Shown: positions 26,007 through 35,469, counted from the stretch's first letter. The stretch is 64,000 nt of DNA from an uncultured bacterium (GCA_902826395.1 CADEER010000012.1:5049-69048), one strand, 5' to 3'. Program-made: numbers and translations. Notes: generated by a model not told the origin, from the sequence alone.

Positions 26007-28286
26007 CTAGGCCGCGATGGCGGCCCTGTCACTGCCGAGCGCGACGCGCAACACCTGATCGATCGTGCCGACCGGGTGGAAGTGCATGACGTTGCGCACC
26101 TCCGCCGGCACGTCGTCGAGATCCGGCGCATTGCGTTCGGGCAGTACCACGTCGGTCAATCCAGCCGCGTGGGCGGCCAGCACCTTCTGCTTGAGGCCGC
26201 CGATCGGCAACACGCGTCCCTGCAGCGTCACCTCGCCGGTCATGCCGACGTGATTGCGCACCGCTCTGCCGGTGAGCAGCGACACCAGCGCGGTGGCGAT
26301 CGTGATGCCGGCGCTCGGGCCGTCCTTGGGGATTGCGCCGGCCGGGACGTGGATGTGGAACTCGCGTTCCTTCAGCAGGTTCTTGTCGATGCCCAGCGGT
26401 GCGGCGTGGCTGCGCACGTAGCTGAGCGCGATCTGCGCCGACTCCTTCATCACCTCGCCGAGCTGCCCGGTCAGCACCAACCCGCCTTTGCCCGGCATTG
26501 TGGCGACCTCGACGAAGAGGACATCGCCACCGGCGCCGGTCACGGCGAGCCCGGTTGCGACACCGGGCACGGCGACGCGCGAAGCCACTTCGGTGTAGTG
26601 CTTTTGCCGCCCGAGTGCGTCGCGGATTGTCGCCTCGTCGATCTCGATCGCAGCGTCCGGCTGAATCGCGACGCGTGTCGCCATCTTGCGCAACAGCTTG
26701 CCCAGCTCGCGTTCGAGCTGGCGCACGCCCGCCTCGCGTGTGTACTCGTCGATGATCAGCCGCAACAGCGGTGCGCTGATTTCGACCTCGCCCGGGCGCA
26801 GGGCGTTGCGCTTCAACTGGCGCGGCCACAGGTAGTCGCGCGCGATGGCCGTCTTCTCGTCGAGCGTGTAGCCGTCGAAGCGGATGATCTCCATGCGATC
26901 CAAGAGTGGCGCCGGAATGCTGTCGACGACGTTGGCGGTGGCGATGAACAAGACCTCCGACAAGTCGAGCTCGACGTCGAGGTAGTGATCGCGGAAGGTG
27001 TGGTTCTGCGCCGGGTCCAGGACCTCGAGCAACGCCGCCGACGGATCGCCGCGCCAGTCGTTGCCGAGCTTGTCGACCTCGTCGAGCAGAATGACCGGGT
27101 TCATCGTGCCGGCATCGCGCAGAGCGCGCACCAGTCGCCCGGGCATCGCGCCGATGTAGGTGCGGCGGTGGCCGCGGATCTCCGCCTCGTCGCGCACGCC
27201 GCCGAGGGCGATGCGGACGAACTCGCGACCGGTAGCGCGAGCCACCGACTCGCCGATCGAGGTCTTGCCGGTTCCCGGAGGGCCGACCAACGTGAGAATC
27301 ACGCCCGACTTGCGGTCCGGCTCGATTCCGCGCTCCTCGCGCAGCTTGCGCACCGCCAGGTAGTCGGTGATGCGCTGCTTGACGTCATCCAGTCCGGCGT
27401 GGTCGGCGTCTAGGACGGAGCGAGCGTTCAGCGGGTCGAGATTCTCGTCGCTGCGCTTCGACCAAGGCAGTGAGACCAGCCAGTCGAGGTAGGTGCGGAT
27501 CTGCTGCGACTCGGGACTCGAGTCGCCCATTCGTTCCAGCCGTCCGAGCTCGCGCTCGGCCTGCTCGCGGATGGCGTCCGGCATGCCGGCCTCGGCGATC
27601 TTGCTGCGGTATTCGTCGACGACGGCGTCGTCGTCATCGCCGAGCTCCTTGCGGATGGCGTCCATCTGACGGCGCAGCACGTACTCCTTCTGCTGCTTTT
27701 GCGAGCCGGCGTCGACGTCTTCGCGGATGCGCTTGCGCAGTTGCAGCTCGGTGAGCCGCTCGCGCTGCAGGTCGAGCGCGCGGCGCAGACGCTCCTTGAC
27801 GTCGAACGTCTCGAGGATCTCGACCTTTTGCGCAAAGGTCAGGTCGGGCGAGTATCCGCACGTGTCGGCGAGCGTTCCGACCTCTTCGATCGCGCGCACG
27901 AAAGACGCAATGCGGCCGTCGTCGCCGCGCAGGTCGAGAATCTCGGCCACCACGGCTCGGTATTCCTTCTCGAGCTCGATGGTCTGTGAGCGAGGCGGAT
28001 TCTCGTCCGGACGCTCGTCGACCTCGACGCGCAGATTGCCTTCCTGGTCGGGATGAGCCGAGCCGGCGACGGCCCGATGCAAGCCCTTCAGGGTGACGGC
28101 GCGCACGCCGCCGGGCAGCCGCAGGGCTTGCCCGACTTCGGCGACAACGCCGACGGACGCGAACCGGCCGTCTTCACGGGGGACCAGCAAAACTCGTGAT
28201 TCCGACCCCACCGAGACCGGCAGGGTCACGTCCATTCCAGGAAAAACCACGAGATCATCGGTTGGAATCAGTCTGAGGGTGGTCAT
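26007..28286 (-). CDS. lon: ATP-dependent Lon protease
   Basis: The true start is ATG (complement 28284-28286, [24 protein letters not shown], the LON N-domain). Walker A is GPPGTGKTS. The catalytic Ser-Lys motif is [17 protein letters not shown]. Upstream codons of ORF 26007-29117 are spurious. Confidence 0.9.
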
Positions 28287-28369
28287 GGCCGCCGAAGCTA
28301 ACCACGCAACTCGGACTGTCAACGTCAACGTTCGTGGTCTTGCAGCACACGAACGTGGAGCCTGACGGA

Positions 28370-29647
28370 CTACGGCGAGACCGCTGCGATGTAGCGCATC
28401 AGAGTGTCGTGGAAATGCCGGATTCGGATCTCTTGGTCGCCCAGATGCAGGGCCTCGAAAGCGCTCGACTGCATGCCGGCCTGGATGCGCGGCAGGTTGT
28501 AGAGATCCTCGTCGAGGATCTCGCCGCCCGGGATGTGCGACAGATCGCCTCCCTCGCCGGCGCGGCGCCGCTCGTGGCGCGGTCTGGGGACGTCCTGCGC
28601 GGGCGTGTTCAGCAGGTTGAAGAAATCGAAGTACATCTTGTTCGGATCGGTTGGGTGCGGTCGGTGGCGGAAGATCCAGACGAACATCGAGTGCACGTTG
28701 AAGGTCAGGTTGGGAAACACCGTGTAGTGAAAGTCGTCGCACATCTGCGTGTCGTCGAGCTGCGAGAAGTCGCTGCCCAGAGATTCGCCGAGACGCCGGA
28801 CGGCGGCGGCGAACTCGCGGCGGGCGTCGGCCGGGCCGCCGTGAAACGACTCCACGTCGACACCGACTCGCGCCAGGAAGTTCTTCTTGATGCCCTCGGT
28901 CACCGTGCCGTGCCCGGGATGGCGGCGGCTGGCGATCACTTCGGGAAAGATCATGCGCGTGTGACGCTCGTAGCAGTCGTAGGTGGTGCCGGTATCGTCG
29001 GTGAATTCGAGCGTCGCGGCGTGCGTTGCGTGGACGTGGTACGCCTCGTTGAACGCGTCGACCGAGGTCTTCCAGTTGCAGTCGACCTCGATCGTCATGT
29101 CGGTTTCCAGCTTCCATCGCTCGAAGCCGTAGGGATCGAGGTGTTCCGGAATCACGCCGAGATACTCGCGCAGCGGTATCGCACCGGCGTGGAGATTGAT
29201 CCAGACGAAGCCGCCCCAGGTTTCGCAGCGTACCGGGCGAAGGGCGAGCTTCTCCGCCGGCAGTCTTTGCGGGAAGGACTCCGGGTCGGTGGCCGCCAGC
29301 AGCGTGCCGTCGAGGCAGTACTGCCAGCCGTGGTAGGCGCAGGTAAAGCGCCCGGCGTTGCCGCGACCGGGCTCGCGCAGTCGATTGCCGCGGTGCATGC
29401 AGACGTTGTAGCGCGCGGCGACCGAGCCGTCCGGTTGCCGTACCACCAGGATCGATTCAGTTCCGATCTCGAACGTGAAGTAGTCGCCGCTGCGCTTGAG
29501 GTCTGATTCGAAGCCGGCGAACAACCAGACCCGCTGCCACATGCGCTCCCACTCGCTGCGCGCGAACTCGGGACTGGTGTAGCGATCCTTCGGGATTGGT
29601 TCGTGGCCGAGCTCGGGCCACGGAGCGCGCTGCATGGGCGTGGACAC
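28370..29647 (-). CDS. Rieske [2Fe-2S] ring-hydroxylating oxygenase alpha subunit
   Basis: CMHRGNRL...CAYHGWQY is a Rieske CxH-x(15-17)-CxxH motif. The C-terminal catalytic domain has a mononuclear-iron His motif (EAYHVHATH). Confidence 0.85.
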   Translation of the reverse strand: MSTPMQRAPWPELGHEPIPKDRYTSPEFARSEWERMWQRVWLFAGFESDLKRSGDYFTFEIGTESILVVRQPDGSVAARYNVCMHRGNRLREPGRGNAGRFTCAYHGWQYCLDGTLLAATDPESFPQRLPAEKLALRPVRCETWGGFVWINLHAGAIPLREYLGVIPEHLDPYGFERWKLETDMTIEVDCNWKTSVDAFNEAYHVHATHAATLEFTDDTGTTYDCYERHTRMIFPEVIASRRHPGHGTVTEGIKKNFLARVGVDVESFHGGPADARREFAAAVRRLGESLGSDFSQLDDTQMCDDFHYTVFPNLTFNVHSMFVWIFRHRPHPTDPNKMYFDFFNLLNTPAQDVPRPRHERRRAGEGGDLSHIPGGEILDEDLYNLPRIQAGMQSSAFEALHLGDQEIRIRHFHDTLMRYIAAVSP

Positions 29648-29697: not shown

Positions 29698-32600
29698 TCA
29701 GACGCTGCCTTGGCCGTCGAGGAAGGAGCGCAGAAAACGGCCGGTGTGCGACGCCTTCACACGCATCACGTCGGCGACGCTGCCCATCGCGACGACGCGT
29801 CCGCCGCCTTCGCCTCCTTCGGGCCCGAGGTCGATGATCCAGTCCGCTTCTTTGACGATGTCGAGGTTGTGCTCGATGGTGATCACCGTGTTGCCGTGAT
29901 CGACGAGCCGGTGCAGGACGTCGATCAGCTTCTCCACGTCGGCGAAATGAAGGCCGGTGGTCGGCTCGTCGAGCACGTAGAGAGTCGCGCCCTGCGACTC
30001 CTTGCTCAGCTCGTAGGCGAGCTTGATGCGCTGCGCTTCACCGCCGGACAACGTGTTGCTGCCTTGCCCGAGAGTCAGGTAGCCGAGACCGATGTCGTTC
30101 AGTAGACGGAGCGGCTTTGCGACCTTCGGAACCGACGAGAAGAGCTCGGCGGCATCCTCGATCGTCATCGCCAGGACTTCGCCCATGTTACGGCCGCCGT
30201 ACAACACCGCGAGAGTTTCCTTGTTGAATCGCGCGCCGCCGCAGGTGTCGCACGAGACGTAGACGTCGGGCAGGAAGCTCATCTCCATCTTGATGCGTCC
30301 CTGACCGGCGCATTCTTCGCAGCGCCCGCCTTTTACGTTGAAAGAGAACCGACTCGCCTTGTATCCGCGGCTGCGGGCCTCGGGTGTGAGCGCGAAGAGT
30401 TTGCGGATCTCGTCGAAGAAGCCGACGTACGATGCCGGGATCGAGCGCGGAGTGCGCCCGATCGGCGTCTGGTCGACCTCGATGATGCGACCGAGTCGCT
30501 CGAATCCCTCGATGCGCGCGTGCGCGCCCGCTCGCCCGCCGGCGAGGCCGAGCTGTCTGCGCAAGCCGGCGTAGAGGACATCGCGTACCAGCGTCGACTT
30601 GCCGGAGCCGGATACGCCGGTCACACAGGTCCAGGCCCCGAGCGGCAGGTCGACATCGATGTCGCGGAGGTTGTGCTCGGCGGCACCGCGCAGAGCCAGG
30701 CGGTCGGAGGCAGTGGTGTCGCGGGTCGGACCGCGGCGGCTGCGCGCGCGACCGAGAAAGCGGCCGGTGAGGGATCGCTCGTTGCGTGCCAGCTCGCGCG
30801 GCGATCCGAGCCCTACCAGCTCGCCGCCCTTCGATCCGCCGCCCGGTCCGAGATCGACGATCAGGTCGGCCGCGTCGATCGTCGCTTCGTCGTGCTCGAC
30901 CACCAGTAGCGTGTTGCCCTTCTCCTTCAAGCCGACGAGCGTGCCGATCAACATGGCGTTGTCGCGCGGATGCAGGCCGATGGTCGGCTCGTCCAGGATG
31001 TAGCAGACACCGCGCAGATTGGAGCCGAGCTGGGACGCAAGGCGGATGCGCTGTGCCTCGCCGCCGGACAGAGTGTCGGCGCGCCGGTCGAGAGTCAGAT
31101 AGGGCAGCCCGACCTCCTCGAGGAAGCGCAGCCTGGGCAGGATCTCCTTCATCACGTTGTCGGCGATCGCCGCGTCGCGCTTGGAGAAACGCAGGCGGCC
31201 CAGCGCCGCGTGGGCGTCGGCGACGGAGTCGGCGGTCACTTCCGAGATGGCGCGACCCTGTACGCGAACCGCGCGCGCGCGATCGTTGAGGCGCGAACCG
31301 TGACACTCGCCGCAGGGCTTCTCGCTCAACAGCTCGAGCAGGCCCGCGGCCGCGTCGTCGTCCTCCGCCATCAGCTCGTGCAGCGCGTCGACGAGGCCGG
31401 GCTTGCCGTTGCCTGCGAAGAACGCCTTGCGCTTGCTCGCCGTCAGCTTGGCGTAGGATCGATCGAGGGCGACGCGATGGCTGCGGGCGATCTTCTTGGC
31501 CAGACGCTGGGCCTTGCTGCCGGCTTCGCTGAGACCGGCTTGCAGCGCCGCGCCGAGCGGCTGGTCGAAGTCGGCTATCAGCGAGGCGGGCTCGAAGGTG
31601 ACGACGGTTCCCATACCATCGCAGGCGGAACAGGCCCCCTGGCGGCTGTTGAAGGAGAACAGCCGCGGATCGAGCTCCTCGTAGCCGATGCCGCACGCCG
31701 CGCAGTAGAGGCGCTCGCTGTAGATGCGCTCGCCGCTGTGGCCGATGGTGACGACGGCGCCGCCGCCGAGTCGCTGCGCGGTGGCGACGCACTCGTCGAG
31801 CTGGGCGCGAGCGCTGCCGCGCACGTCGACCTCGCCGACGACGATGTCGATATCGTGCTCCTTGTAGCGGGCCAGCGATGGAGTCGGGTTCAGCGCGACG
31901 ATGGCCCCGTCGATGCGGGCGCGGCGGAATCCGATCTTGCGCACCGCCTGGAACAGCTCCTTGTAGATCCCCTTGCGCCCGCGCACCGCCGGCGCCAGGA
32001 GTGTCACGCTCTCGCCCTTGTGATCGCGCTGGATTCGCTTGACGATCTCCTCGCGCGTCATCGCGCTGAGCGGCTGATCGCAGCGCGTGCAGTGCTGCAC
32101 GCCGACCTTGGCGTAGAGGAGCCGCAGGTAGTGGTAGATCTCGGTGACGGTCGCCACGGTCGACCTCTTGCTGCCGCGGCTGAGGCGTTGCTCGATCGCG
32201 ACGGTCGCCGGCACGCCGGCGAGAAGGGCGACGTTGGGACGCGGCAGAATCTTCACGTACTGCCGCGCGTAGGTCGACAGGCTGTCCAGGTAACGCCTCT
32301 GTCCCTCGGCATAGATGATGTCGAAGGCGAGCGTCGACTTGCCCGAGCCGCTGAGGCCGGTGACGACGATGAAGCGGTCGCGCGGCAAGTCGATCGAAAT
32401 GTCGCGCAGGTTGTGCTCCTTCGCGCCGACGACGCGGATCTGGCCGGTCACGCGACCGTTGCGCGAGCCGTAGTCCGCAGCGTCTTCGCCGATCCCCGCG
32501 CGGCTGTGGGTGTCCGCTGCCGCGGGCTCGGCGGCGAGCGCGTGCTTCAGGTAGCGACCGGTGTGCGATGCGGCGCAGTCGGCGACCTCTTCGGGCGTGC

Positions 32601-35304
32601 CGGCGACGACGACCTGGCCGCCGCCGGCTCCGCCCTCGGGCCCGAGATCGATGACGTGATCGGCGACCTTCACGACCTCCATGTTGTGCTCGATGACGAC
32701 GACCGAGTGACCCTGTTCGACCAGGGCCTGGAAGGCGGCGAGCAGTTTCTCGACGTCGGCGAAGTGCAGGCCGATGGTCGGTTCGTCGAAGAGGAATAGC
32801 GTGCCGGTCTTGTTCTGCCCTCCCAGGGCGGCCGCCAGCTTCAATCGCTGTGCCTCGCCTCCCGACAGGGTCGTGAGCGGCTGCCCGAGCCGGAGATAGC
32901 CGAGACCGATCTCGATGAGCGGTCGCAGCCGCTCCCCGACCTCGGCGACGTCATCGAAGAACTCGACCGCCGCCTCTGCGGTGAGATCGAGCACGTCGCG
33001 AATCGACTTACCCTTGTGGGTTACCTCCAGAACTTCGGCGGAGAACCTCGCCCCGGCGCACGCCGGGCAGGTGACGTAGACGTCCGAGAGAAACTGCATC
33101 TCGATCTTCTCGAAGCCTTCTCCGGCGCAGGTTTCGCAGCGGCCGCCGGCGACGTTGAACGAGAACGTCGCGGCCGAATAGCCGCGCAGGCGGGCGAGGC
33201 TCGACGCGGCGAAGATCTTGCGGATCGGGTCGAACGCCTTCAGGTAGGTCGCGGGATTGCCGCGCCGCGTGCTGCCGAGCGCCGCCTGGTCGACCATCAC
33301 GATGTCGCGGACGTGCTGGGCGCCGGCGATCTCGTCGTACTCGCCGGGCGTGGCGACGAACTCACCCCGCTCCTTCTTGATCGCCCGGTACACGATGTCC
33401 TCGATCAGCGTCGACTTTCCGGATCCGGAAACTCCGGTGACCGCGACGAAGCGAGCCAGCGGAATCGACACGTTGACGTTGCGCAGGTTGTTCTCGCGAG
33501 CGCCGCGCACGACGAGGCGCAGGTTGGAGCTGAGAGGCCGCCGGCGGCGCGGCAGGGGGATGGCTTTGCGACCCGACAGATACTCGGCGGTGCTGGAACC
33601 GGTTTCGGAGAGGAGATCGCGATATGGGCCGGCGAACATCACCTCGCCCCCCTTCTCGCCGGCGCGCGGTCCCAGATCGATGATGTGATCGGCCTCGCGG
33701 ATGATCTCCGCCTCGTGCTCGACCACGACTACGGTGTTCTCTTTGGCGCGCAGCTCCTGAAGGATGCGCACCAGCCGCTGGCTGTCGCGAGGGTGCAGAC
33801 CGACCGAAGGCTCGTCCAGCACGTACAGCGTATTGACGAGCGACGATCCTACGGCGCGCGTCAGGTCGACGCGCGCCAACTCGCCGCCGGAGAGTGTTCG
33901 CGACTGGCGATCGAGCGTGAGGTACTCGAGGCCGACGGCGAGCAGATAGCCGAGCCGTGAGCGGATCTCCTTCAGAATGAGATCGGCGATCTGCGCTTCC
34001 TGGTCGGTCAGCGAGAGATCGGCGAAGAACGCTGCGACGTCGGCGACGCTGCGCCGATGCAGCTCCACGATGGTCTCCCCGCCGACGCGGTAGTTGAGGG
34101 CATCCTTCTTGAGACGCCCGCCGTCACAAGTCGTGCAGACGCGATAGGAGCGATAGCGCGCCAGGAAGACGCGGACGTGCATCTTGTAAGTCCGCCCCTC
34201 GAGCCAGCGGAACCAGCCGCGGATGCCGTGGAACTTGCCCTCGCCGTCGACGATACGCCGTTTGTGGTCCTCGCGCAGATTTTCGTACGCGACGTCCATC
34301 GGGATGCCGGCGCCGCGGCAATAGCGGGCGAGAACGCCGCGCTCCCACTCGGTGGAGTTGGTGTTCCACGGTTTGATGGCGCCGTCCTTCAGCGACTTGC
34401 GGGTGTCGGGCACGACTAGATCCAGATCGACGTCGATGATGCGGCCGAAGCCGCGGCAGGCGTCGCAGGCGCCGAGCGGGCTGTTGAAGGAGAAGAGATT
34501 CGGCACCGGCTCGCGCAGCGAAATGTTGCAGCGGGCGCAGACGAGATCTTCGCTGTGCGGTTCGATCTCGCCGCTGTCCGGGTAGACGACGGCCATCGAC
34601 CCCTTGCCGAAGCGAAACGCCTGCTCGATCGAGTCGGTCGCGCGCTTCTTCTGGTCGCTGCCGCCCGCGGCGCGGATTACCAGCCGATCGACCACGACGC
34701 AGAGCGGCCGTGGCATGCCCTGGTTGTCGTCGATGCTCTCCAGATCGCGCACCTCGCCGTCGACGAGAAGACGGCGAAAGCCCGCGGCCTGCAGCCCGGC
34801 GCGCACCTCCGACCACGGCAGCGAATCCGGGACCGACGGCGCGAAGGTGACCAGCGCGCGTGTACCATCGGAGCGCTGCATCAGGGCGTGGGCGACGCGC
34901 TCGGGCGTTTCGCGCGCGACGACGGTGCCGCACTGTGGGCAGTGCGGCACTCCGATCTTCGCGAACAGCAGCTTCAGATGGTCGTGAAGCTCGGTCATGG
35001 TGCCGACCGTCGAACGCGACGTCTTGACCGAGTTCCCCTGGCTGATGGCAATCGCCGGCAGAATTCCTTCGATCTGTTCGACCTGCGGCTTGTCCATGCG
35101 ATCGAGGAACTGACGCGTGTATGCCGAGAAGCTCTCGACGTAGCGCCGCTGCCCTTCGGCATAGAGGACGTCGAAGGCGAGGCTGGATTTCCCCGACCCC
35201 GACACGCCGGTAATGACCGTCAGCTGGTTGACCGGGATGTCGACGTCGACGTTGCGGAGGTTGTTCTGACTCGCCCCGCGAATGCGAATCCAATCCTTCT
35301 TCAC
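29698..35304 (-). CDS. uvrA: Tandem-duplicated UvrA-like excinuclease ABC subunit A (two complete UvrA units fused, four ABC ATPase modules)
   Basis: The 1868-aa ORF has UvrA homology end to end. Unit 1 begins [62 protein letters not shown]. Unit 2 begins ~aa 930 with [62 protein letters not shown]. Each unit has two Walker A sites (GxSGSGKST), ABC signature motifs (LSGGE) and Zn-finger Cys pairs. Confidence 0.85.
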
Positions 35305-35469
35305 TGCTCGCCCACCACGAACCGGCGACTATAGCGAAGGCCACGCACCCCGGCCATGCACCCGCCGAATCCCCGCTTTTTTCGTCCGCCGATTGCCTGA
35401 TATGAGTCGCATCAGACACTGCGCTCTTCGTGGGTCGGGGCGGTCGTAGGTTATCGAGGAAGGCAGGTC

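Follow-up and report, generated by a model that had tools for sequence, protein, structure and literature searches.

An uncultured bacterium encodes, within a stretch of 64,000 nucleotides (GCA_902826395.1, CADEER010000012.1:5049-69048; hereafter the window, meaning the whole stretch of DNA analysed), a single open reading frame (ORF) in which two complete UvrA units are fused head to tail. The locus raises the question of what such a protein does: whether it is a UvrA of nucleotide excision repair (NER) or a paralog with another task, and how two unlike units in one chain would share the work of a dimer. Since UvrA works as a symmetric homodimer, genetics cannot separate what each protomer contributes, and it has long been argued whether one or two UvrB molecules are loaded and why there are two insertion domains. 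The window gene belongs to a widespread, uncharacterised lineage of fused UvrA proteins that databases label as UvrA. The new result, as read from the alignment of this lineage, is a family-wide complementary asymmetry between the N-terminal (N) and C-terminal (C) units, and the pattern of conservation suggests that the fused protein probably acts in NER.

Two UvrA units in one reading frame

The window protein, for which an identical entry (P0001) is present in NCBI, consists of two diverged protomers in one chain, unlike the class I protomer of approximately 940 amino acids (aa), which forms homodimers. The Walker A, LSGGE signature, Walker B and H-loop motifs all occur in both units, with LSGGE at residues 471, 813, 1412 and 1752 and Walker B at residues 496, 839, 1437 and 1778 alongside the four Walker A sites (Table 1), and they are conserved in 73 family members (throughout, the proteins whose 73 N and 73 C halves were aligned together with canonical UvrAs). 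Twelve CxxC pairs lie at the positions expected of six Zn modules, three per protomer, and are kept family-wide. The first signature of the N unit is followed by a deviant L-x-R-V-D-L-T, where the canonical sequence is A-Q-R-I-R-L-A. Against the NCBIfam UvrA equivalog model (NF001503, cut-off 1147 bits), the N half alone falls just below the cut-off (1102.8 bits, model positions 2-941 of 943), the C half alone just above it (1158.7 bits, positions 5-941), and the whole protein scores 2254.7 bits. Each half matches the UvrA structures of Geobacillus stearothermophilus (Bst) and Clostridium thermocellum (Ct) over its full length (E ~1e-270). AlphaFold2 (AF2) models of the halves, made separately, have a predicted local distance difference test score (pLDDT) of 86.1 for the N half and 85.3 for the C half, and both units, UvrB-binding and insertion regions included, are modelled as well folded. 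The best Foldseek matches of the N-half model are Bst UvrA structures 2r6f_A and 3uwx_A (query-normalised template modelling score, TM, 0.84-0.88), and the Bst UvrA chain of the UvrA-UvrB complex gives the best superposition (TM 0.88).

The linker between the units, judging from its composition, its predicted disorder and the AF2 models (pLDDT below 50 for residues 928-937 of the N model and 1-15 of the C model), is a flexible tether. Across the family it spans 24-89 aa between the motifs '...SHTGRYL' and 'I.V.GA[KR]' and is hypervariable and of low complexity. One subclade of Candidatus Binatia has a strongly basic linker (for example '...RPQRKRRKAKS...'; loci L012, L014-L016, L018, L028, L041, L042 and L075), which might add DNA affinity, in contrast to the acidic or neutral, alanine-rich linker of the window protein.

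The earlier note, made from the window sequence alone, had described one ORF with two full UvrA units, four Walker A sites and doubled signature and Zn-finger sets, amounting to a covalently linked pseudo-dimer, and had asked whether the junction was real and whether the halves might be identical at the DNA level. The ORF and motifs bear out that description, two complete UvrA units in one conserved ORF support the pseudo-dimer, and the junction is genuine, a single ORF conserved across phyla around a linker of variable length. The contrary explanation is that two adjacent uvrA genes were merged by a sequencing or assembly error, or that a duplication was collapsed. The halves are just 41% identical over 920 aa, and self-comparison of the ORF at the DNA level finds motif-sized repeats only, 60-80% identical, and no long repeats; on these grounds a collapse or duplication artefact is excluded. 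The G+C content at third codon positions is 0.87 throughout the ORF, typical for genes of the window (66% G+C). An uninterrupted ORF of at least 1800 aa is found in 72 of 81 related loci (80 from a scan of GTDB genomes, plus L001), more than 70 independent assemblies in four phyla with closed chromosomes among them; the remaining, shorter loci are mostly truncated at contig ends, with one frameshifted copy. Among the Binatia replicons with the ortholog are OY761159.2, OZ246888.1, OX638322.1, OZ220487.1, OZ251505.1 and the 4.77-Mb contig of ERZ25072999. All that speaks for an artefact is that a few relatives are split, and we regard its probability as negligible. The split relatives are L072:9977-15581, with a frameshift after approximately 1371 aa, and the pair P0126 and P0128, products of 1469 and 418 aa on one NCBI contig of 5,221,352 bp; they may be sequencing errors or pseudogenes.

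Complementary conservation and a proposed asymmetric pseudo-dimer

Both units carry a UvrB-binding domain of full length (family median 140 aa in the N unit and 138 aa in the C unit, against 139 aa in Bst UvrA), and both domains score above the cut-off of Pfam model PF17760 (23.3 bits; E. coli UvrA control 135.7 bits; Table 1). They differ in the residues that dock UvrB. In Escherichia coli UvrA, R216A/E222A is a mutant of the surface of interaction with UvrB and Mfd (PMC3025350). The equivalent of R216 is present in 73 of 73 N units and in none of the 73 C units, and that of E222 in 71 N units and again in no C unit. Signature domain II has the opposite pattern. The E. coli mutant R712A/R722A/R724A/R730A is defective in DNA binding (PMC3025350); the C unit keeps R712 in 73, R722 in 71, R724 in 69 and R730 in 73 of the 73 family members, whereas the N unit keeps R712 but has R722 in only 36/73, R724 in 46/73 and R730 in 0/73, with T, A or S instead.

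The insertion domain, which in E. coli UvrA (residues 290-400) is required to tell damaged from undamaged DNA (PMC3025350), is likewise conserved on one side. That of the N unit bears a family motif, is approximately 20 aa below the canonical length and is 40% identical between Binatia and Verrucomicrobia; that of the C unit is 14% identical in the same comparison, keeps none of nine canonical invariant positions and is unconstrained in sequence, and in many related representatives it is down to 2-30 aligned residues. On PF17755 (cut-off 23.2 bits; E. coli UvrA control 135.9 bits) only the N-unit domain exceeds the cut-off (Table 1). The residues that sense lesions are shared: both units conserve Y62, Q65 and F66, which contact the lesion, together with the hairpin residue F755 and G502 (C. 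thermocellum numbering, PMC12796330). At the interface (Ct-UvrA residues 54-85 against 505-510) the changes are asymmetric, the N unit having N509/T510 and the C unit T84/V85.

With moderate confidence, we read the fused protein as a covalent asymmetric UvrA pseudo-dimer with intramolecular N:C pairing and one complete UvrB site. After the fusion, the duplicated accessory functions would have been split between the units. The N and C units would fold back on each other to make the equivalent of the UvrA2 dimer, the N unit keeping the UvrB/Mfd docking surface and the damage-discriminating insertion domain and the C unit keeping the canonical DNA surface of signature domain II, its docking residues gone and its insertion domain decayed. 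The two UvrA-UvrB interfaces of the known complex are arranged in trans (PMC11985968, PMC12796330); in a pseudo-dimer so arranged, the N-unit UvrB-binding domain and C-unit signature domain II would make up exactly one complete composite UvrB site, and the C-unit UvrB-binding domain and N-unit signature domain II would be the second site, lost or weakened. The protein would scan DNA as a 'dimer' independent of concentration. Each unit would sense lesions by its Y62/Q65/F66 wedge and F755 hairpin, and only one side would receive a UvrB molecule or contact Mfd. UvrB is reported to sit on the protomer that opens its insertion domain (PMC11985968), which matches the retention of docking residues and insertion domain together in the N unit. 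Because the complementary pattern makes sense only if N and C units pair, we infer from the observed architecture and conservation both this pairing mode and a stoichiometry of one UvrB.

Several observations weigh against this reading. The C-unit UvrB-binding domain outscores that of the N unit on PF17760 (98 versus 46 bits). The canonical core motifs RGRKG and KEH are retained in this domain and invariant in the family, and because it has invariant residues of its own (R171, R173, K174, G175, D195, R209 and H213, in C-unit numbering) it would seem to be under selection for something, possibly an altered contact with UvrB. The putative loss of its UvrB site is judged from two residues, basic residues lie one or two positions from the R216 column in some C units, and the R216A/E222A double-alanine mutant of E. 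coli still gave some repair (PMC3025350). The argument for intramolecular N:C pairing is drawn from complementary conservation, and covariation of N and C interface residues, despite the asymmetric changes, does not separate the pairing modes. No uvrB or uvrC gene is linked to the fused gene in the window or in the 80 loci, for which reason we infer the partnership with UvrB rather than read it from gene linkage. Finally, a canonical uvrA stands alongside the fused gene in Chthoniobacterales, where the fused protein may be specialised and not a housekeeping enzyme.

Some of these points are accommodated by a symmetric covalent UvrA2, in which both units bind UvrB, the C unit via a remodelled surface that co-evolved with the UvrB of the host; such a protein would act just as canonical UvrA2B2 does, and the fusion would give only dimerisation independent of concentration. 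The full-length UvrB-binding domains, the higher score and invariant residues of that in the C unit and the four intact ATPase sites are in its favour, as is the presence of R216 and E222 in both halves of 14 of 106 fused representatives. We nevertheless think it rather unlikely, since the R216 and E222 equivalents are gone from all 73 C units and present in essentially all N units, and since neither the loss in N-unit signature domain II nor the decay or deletion of the C-unit insertion domain would be expected of equivalent sides. Pairing might instead take place between chains (N:N', C:C' or a domain swap), to give a dimer of fused chains in which one UvrA2-like module has its full equipment and the other has been stripped: Y55 and F66, which contact themselves across the two-fold axis, are kept in both units, and the linkers are long and flexible. 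Yet N:N' pairing puts both docking-competent UvrB-binding domains against the weakened N-unit signature domain II, the C-unit signature domain II would face domains that lack the docking residues, and no functional site would be complete, while a tether of at least 24 aa ought strongly to favour the intramolecular partner; pairing between chains is accordingly judged quite improbable.

A different function altogether, that of a UvrB-independent DNA-binding or drug-resistance paralog resembling UvrA2, DrrC or Ecm16, is in our estimation very improbable. It would agree with the coexistence of a canonical uvrA and an ortholog of the fused gene in five Chthoniobacterales genomes, with the N-half score just under the NF001503 cut-off and with the ability of class II UvrAs to act without UvrB (PMC9328131). 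Class II, however, is defined by the absence of the UvrB-binding domain and Zn module 1, and neither half has lost either. The N unit has invariant UvrB/Mfd contact residues, the match to class II structures is far poorer than that to class I structures, and the neighbours of the gene are housekeeping genes, without a biosynthetic cluster or efflux genes.

The fused family offers a natural asymmetric arrangement whose sites can be mutated one at a time, so that the roles of the two UvrA protomers become separable. If fused UvrAs are in general sensors with a single UvrB site, the second docking site having decayed repeatedly, one UvrB per sensor would be enough for productive repair, and the family with N-type and C-type units, in Binatia, Acidobacteriota, Thermodesulfobacteriota and Verrucomicrobiota, would be a distinct asymmetric branch of NER that replaces or parallels the canonical symmetric UvrA2B2 pathway.

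Distribution, origin and genomic context

The earlier note had called such fused forms rare, which did not hold. A scan of one genome per GTDB species yielded at least 579 stretches encoding relatives, and the fused-gene relatives belong to Candidatus Binatia (57-77% identity), Acidobacteriota (52-54%), Thermodesulfobacteriota/Syntrophales (46-59%) and Verrucomicrobiota (43-48%). By these identities the window, part of a contig of 72,448 bp, most likely derives from a Binatia metagenome-assembled genome. When the C half was searched exhaustively with HMMER against 1.84 billion cluster representatives at 50% identity, almost all of the best 150, which were those analysed, were multi-unit or over-length, and 106 of the 150 had exactly four Walker A motifs. 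Tandem UvrA fusions are thus common, and they have arisen repeatedly.

Within the family that includes the window protein, cross-phylum identity is 49-55% among N halves and 49-54% among C halves, and N and C halves are always approximately 40% identical to each other; identity to canonical UvrA is 43-46% for N halves and 47-48% for C halves. A neighbour-joining tree (78 sequences, 909 columns, 100 bootstraps) supports the N clade and the C clade each in 100/100 replicates and the split of canonical UvrA from N plus C in 89/100, although long-branch attraction between the fast-evolving N and C clades is possible. The sequences indicate an ancient fusion whose orthologs span four phyla or more, and they fit a single ancient event of tandem duplication and fusion, after which both units diverged.

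The N-type first half is found in approximately 40 of the fused clusters. Both halves of 22 'long+long' clusters are nearer to canonical UvrA than to either half of the window protein, and the same is true of 20 'short+short' clusters, which have no UvrB-binding domain in either half; on this evidence UvrA fusion has arisen several times. By a crude two-residue criterion (R216/E222), 46 of the 60 four-Walker-A representatives with at least one such interface have it in one half only. It may be, although we put this forward tentatively and with more doubt than conviction, that fused UvrAs are natural single-UvrB-site sensors in which the second docking site and one insertion domain decay repeatedly in independent lineages. 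Two symmetric doubles, P0138 (2334 aa) and P0140 (2343 aa), have R216/E222 and the arginine set in both halves, as well as an additional C-terminal extension of approximately 650 aa.

Five Chthoniobacterales loci contain a separate intact canonical uvrA, found by tblastn with E. coli UvrA, 6-9 kb upstream of the fused gene on the opposite strand (Table 1). The fused gene in Chthoniobacterales is therefore a paralog. These canonical copies encode proteins of 956-972 aa with 51-55% identity to E. coli UvrA, the one in L079 being truncated by the end of the locus, and the 956-aa product in L078 scores 1426 bits on NF001503. Genes for a GTP-dependent phosphoenolpyruvate carboxykinase and a TIGR04283-type glycosyltransferase lie between the canonical and fused genes. 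Outside Chthoniobacterales, no extra uvrA turned up when the window and all loci were searched by tblastn with E. coli UvrA, and a search with the best single-length representative (P0279) gave matches in Planctomycetes and none in Binatia. By a rough estimate, the chances that the Binatia gene is the sole UvrA and that it is a paralog are about evenly balanced. Although proteins of this family go by the plain name 'excinuclease ABC subunit UvrA', those of Chthoniobacterales, at least, are paralogs of a genuine UvrA encoded beside them.

In the window, the fused gene is flanked on one side by genes for a divergent phosphofructokinase (PFK), a short-chain dehydrogenase/reductase (SDR), an APH/DUF6285 protein and a MoxR-like AAA protein, and on the other by genes for a Rieske oxygenase, Lon, an epoxide hydrolase and an alcohol dehydrogenase (ADH). 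This neighbourhood is syntenic with that of a relative on a 4.77-Mb contig (L001), and neither region contains genes for biosynthesis of, or resistance to, intercalators. No uvrB, uvrC, mfd or second uvrA was found in the 64-kb window. The gene between the fused uvrA and lon (28370-29647, minus strand) encodes the alpha subunit of a Rieske-type ring-hydroxylating oxygenase; L001 has a MarR regulator at this position, a local insertion or replacement. The Lon ORF (26007-29117, minus strand; 1036 aa as listed) has approximately 270 residues before the first Lon domain and is overlapped by a plus-strand ORF of 514 aa with no Pfam match, and the true start of Lon is probably further downstream than listed. 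In one Binatia metagenome-assembled genome an mfd homolog (L029:17243-20623, plus strand; 39% identical to E. coli Mfd over 1141 aa) follows the fused uvrA, on the same strand and after approximately 1.6 kb, an adjacency that, as a single case, may be due to chance; no mfd lies near the fused gene in the other 79 of the 80 loci.

Upstream of the GTG start codon, against a background of 66% G+C, the window shares a TATAGT hexamer with flanking TTCG repeats, approximately 25-35 nucleotides before the start, with its close Binatia relatives (L001-L005, L007, L029 and L046). Its conservation suggests that it is probably the promoter -10 element of the fused gene. No LexA box indicative of SOS regulation is recognisable upstream of the gene, and a palindrome of the window examined as an SOS element (CTGATGCGACTCATATCAG) is not conserved.

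Table 1. Coordinates of the fused uvrA-uvrA gene, its parts and upstream hexamer in the window, and of canonical uvrA genes in related loci
Feature	Residues	Coordinates	Strand	Remarks
Whole fused uvrA-uvrA ORF	1-1868	29698..35304	-	1868 aa; GTG start; stop codon 29698-29700; no internal stop
N unit	1-919	32548..35304	-	complete class I UvrA protomer
Walker A 1	33-40	35185..35208	-	GVSGSGKS; motif search
N-unit UvrB-binding domain	120-262	34519..34947	-	PF17760, 46.4 bits; R221 and E227 are equivalent to R216 and E222 of E. coli
N-unit insertion domain	293-385	34150..34428	-	PF17755, 53.3 bits; model positions 1-66 of 110
Walker A 2	624-631	33412..33435	-	GVSGSGKS; motif search
N-unit signature domain II	674-827	32824..33285	-	DNA-binding arginines partly lost; 51/77 canonical invariants kept
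Inter-unit linker	920-955	32440..32547	-	approximately 36 aa; A/S/R/G/P-rich; predicted disordered
C unit	956-1868	29701..32439	-	complete class I-type UvrA protomer; canonical ATPase core
Walker A 3	983-990	32335..32358	-	GLSGSGKS; motif search
C-unit UvrB-binding-domain fold	1070-1207	31684..32097	-	PF17760, 98.0 bits; Q1168 and A1174 replace R216 and E222
C-unit insertion-domain remnant	1238-1326	31327..31593	-	PF17755, 12.4 bits; predicted helical
Walker A 4	1563-1570	30595..30618	-	GVSGSGKS; motif search
C-unit signature domain II	1613-1766	30007..30468	-	arginine set intact; 60/77 canonical invariants kept
TATAGT, -10-like hexamer		35328..35333	-	approximately 25 nt upstream of GTG start; sequence conservation only
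Canonical uvrA, Chthoniobacterales		L078:371-3241	-	
Canonical uvrA, Chthoniobacterales		L056:897-3746		
Canonical uvrA, Chthoniobacterales		L068:1201-4050		
Canonical uvrA, Chthoniobacterales		L045:171-3068		
Canonical uvrA, Chthoniobacterales		L079:1-2562		

Comparison with known UvrA systems

The fused protein is 44-49% identical to class I UvrAs (E. coli; G. stearothermophilus, 2R6F and 3UWX; C. thermocellum, 9GXK) and like them has all of the catalytic motifs and lesion-sensing residues. It differs from them in having two units per chain instead of forming a homodimer, in confining the docking residues and a conserved insertion domain to the N unit and the intact signature-II arginines to the C unit, and in the length of both insertion domains, which are approximately 20 aa shorter.

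With class II UvrAs (Deinococcus radiodurans UvrA2, 2VF7; DrrC; Ecm16, 7SH1), the fused protein shares the ABC-ATPase core, an insertion domain, the C-terminal Zn finger and possibly the status of a paralog. Zn module 1 and the UvrB-binding domain are missing from class II UvrAs (PMC9328131, PMC3167621), which function without UvrB (PMC9328131); both units of the fused protein, in contrast, have the two elements, and the class II reading does not hold. The scores of the halves against sequences in the Protein Data Bank (PDB) are approximately 905-935 bits for class I structures, 575-585 bits for 2vf7 and 466-481 bits for 7sh1. The earlier note had seen both the UvrB-binding and the insertion regions as shortened in the manner of class II: the insertion domains are indeed short (93 aa in the N unit and 89 aa in the C unit versus 113 aa in the canonical protein), but the UvrB-binding domains are of full length, above the PF17760 cut-off, with Zn module 1 present. 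Its question whether this is the UvrA of NER or a paralog is a legitimate one, the gene being a paralog in the five Chthoniobacterales genomes; its suggestion of a DrrC-like protein fares worse, as the residues for UvrB/Mfd contact persist in the N unit and the gene lacks a biosynthetic or resistance context. Walker A spacing proved a misleading guide for sorting halves into class I and class II: what many 'short' second halves lack is the insertion domain, not the UvrB-binding domain.

Other tandem UvrA lineages resemble the window protein in having four Walker A motifs in one ORF, and comprise doubles of approximately 1600 aa without UvrB-binding domains, symmetric doubles of approximately 1900 aa, and proteins of approximately 1800 aa without the second insertion domain. 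Reportedly, duplicated UvrAs were set apart as a 'class III' by Goosen and Moolenaar in 2008; in the literature searched, no 'class III', duplicated or tandem UvrA category was found, only the class I/IIa/IIb scheme and the size of the Chlamydia trachomatis protein. The latter, CT333, has 1786 aa and is annotated as UvrABC system protein A (PMC6686042). The chlamydial double UvrA (NF001885/PRK00635, model length 1809) resembles the fused protein in being a single ORF of approximately twice the length of UvrA, and is a precedent for a tandem UvrA as the annotated uvrA of a genome. Chlamydia is not known to have another uvrA. The fused protein is nevertheless not a member of the chlamydial equivalog, scoring 1218.8 bits on NF001885 against a cut-off of 3054.

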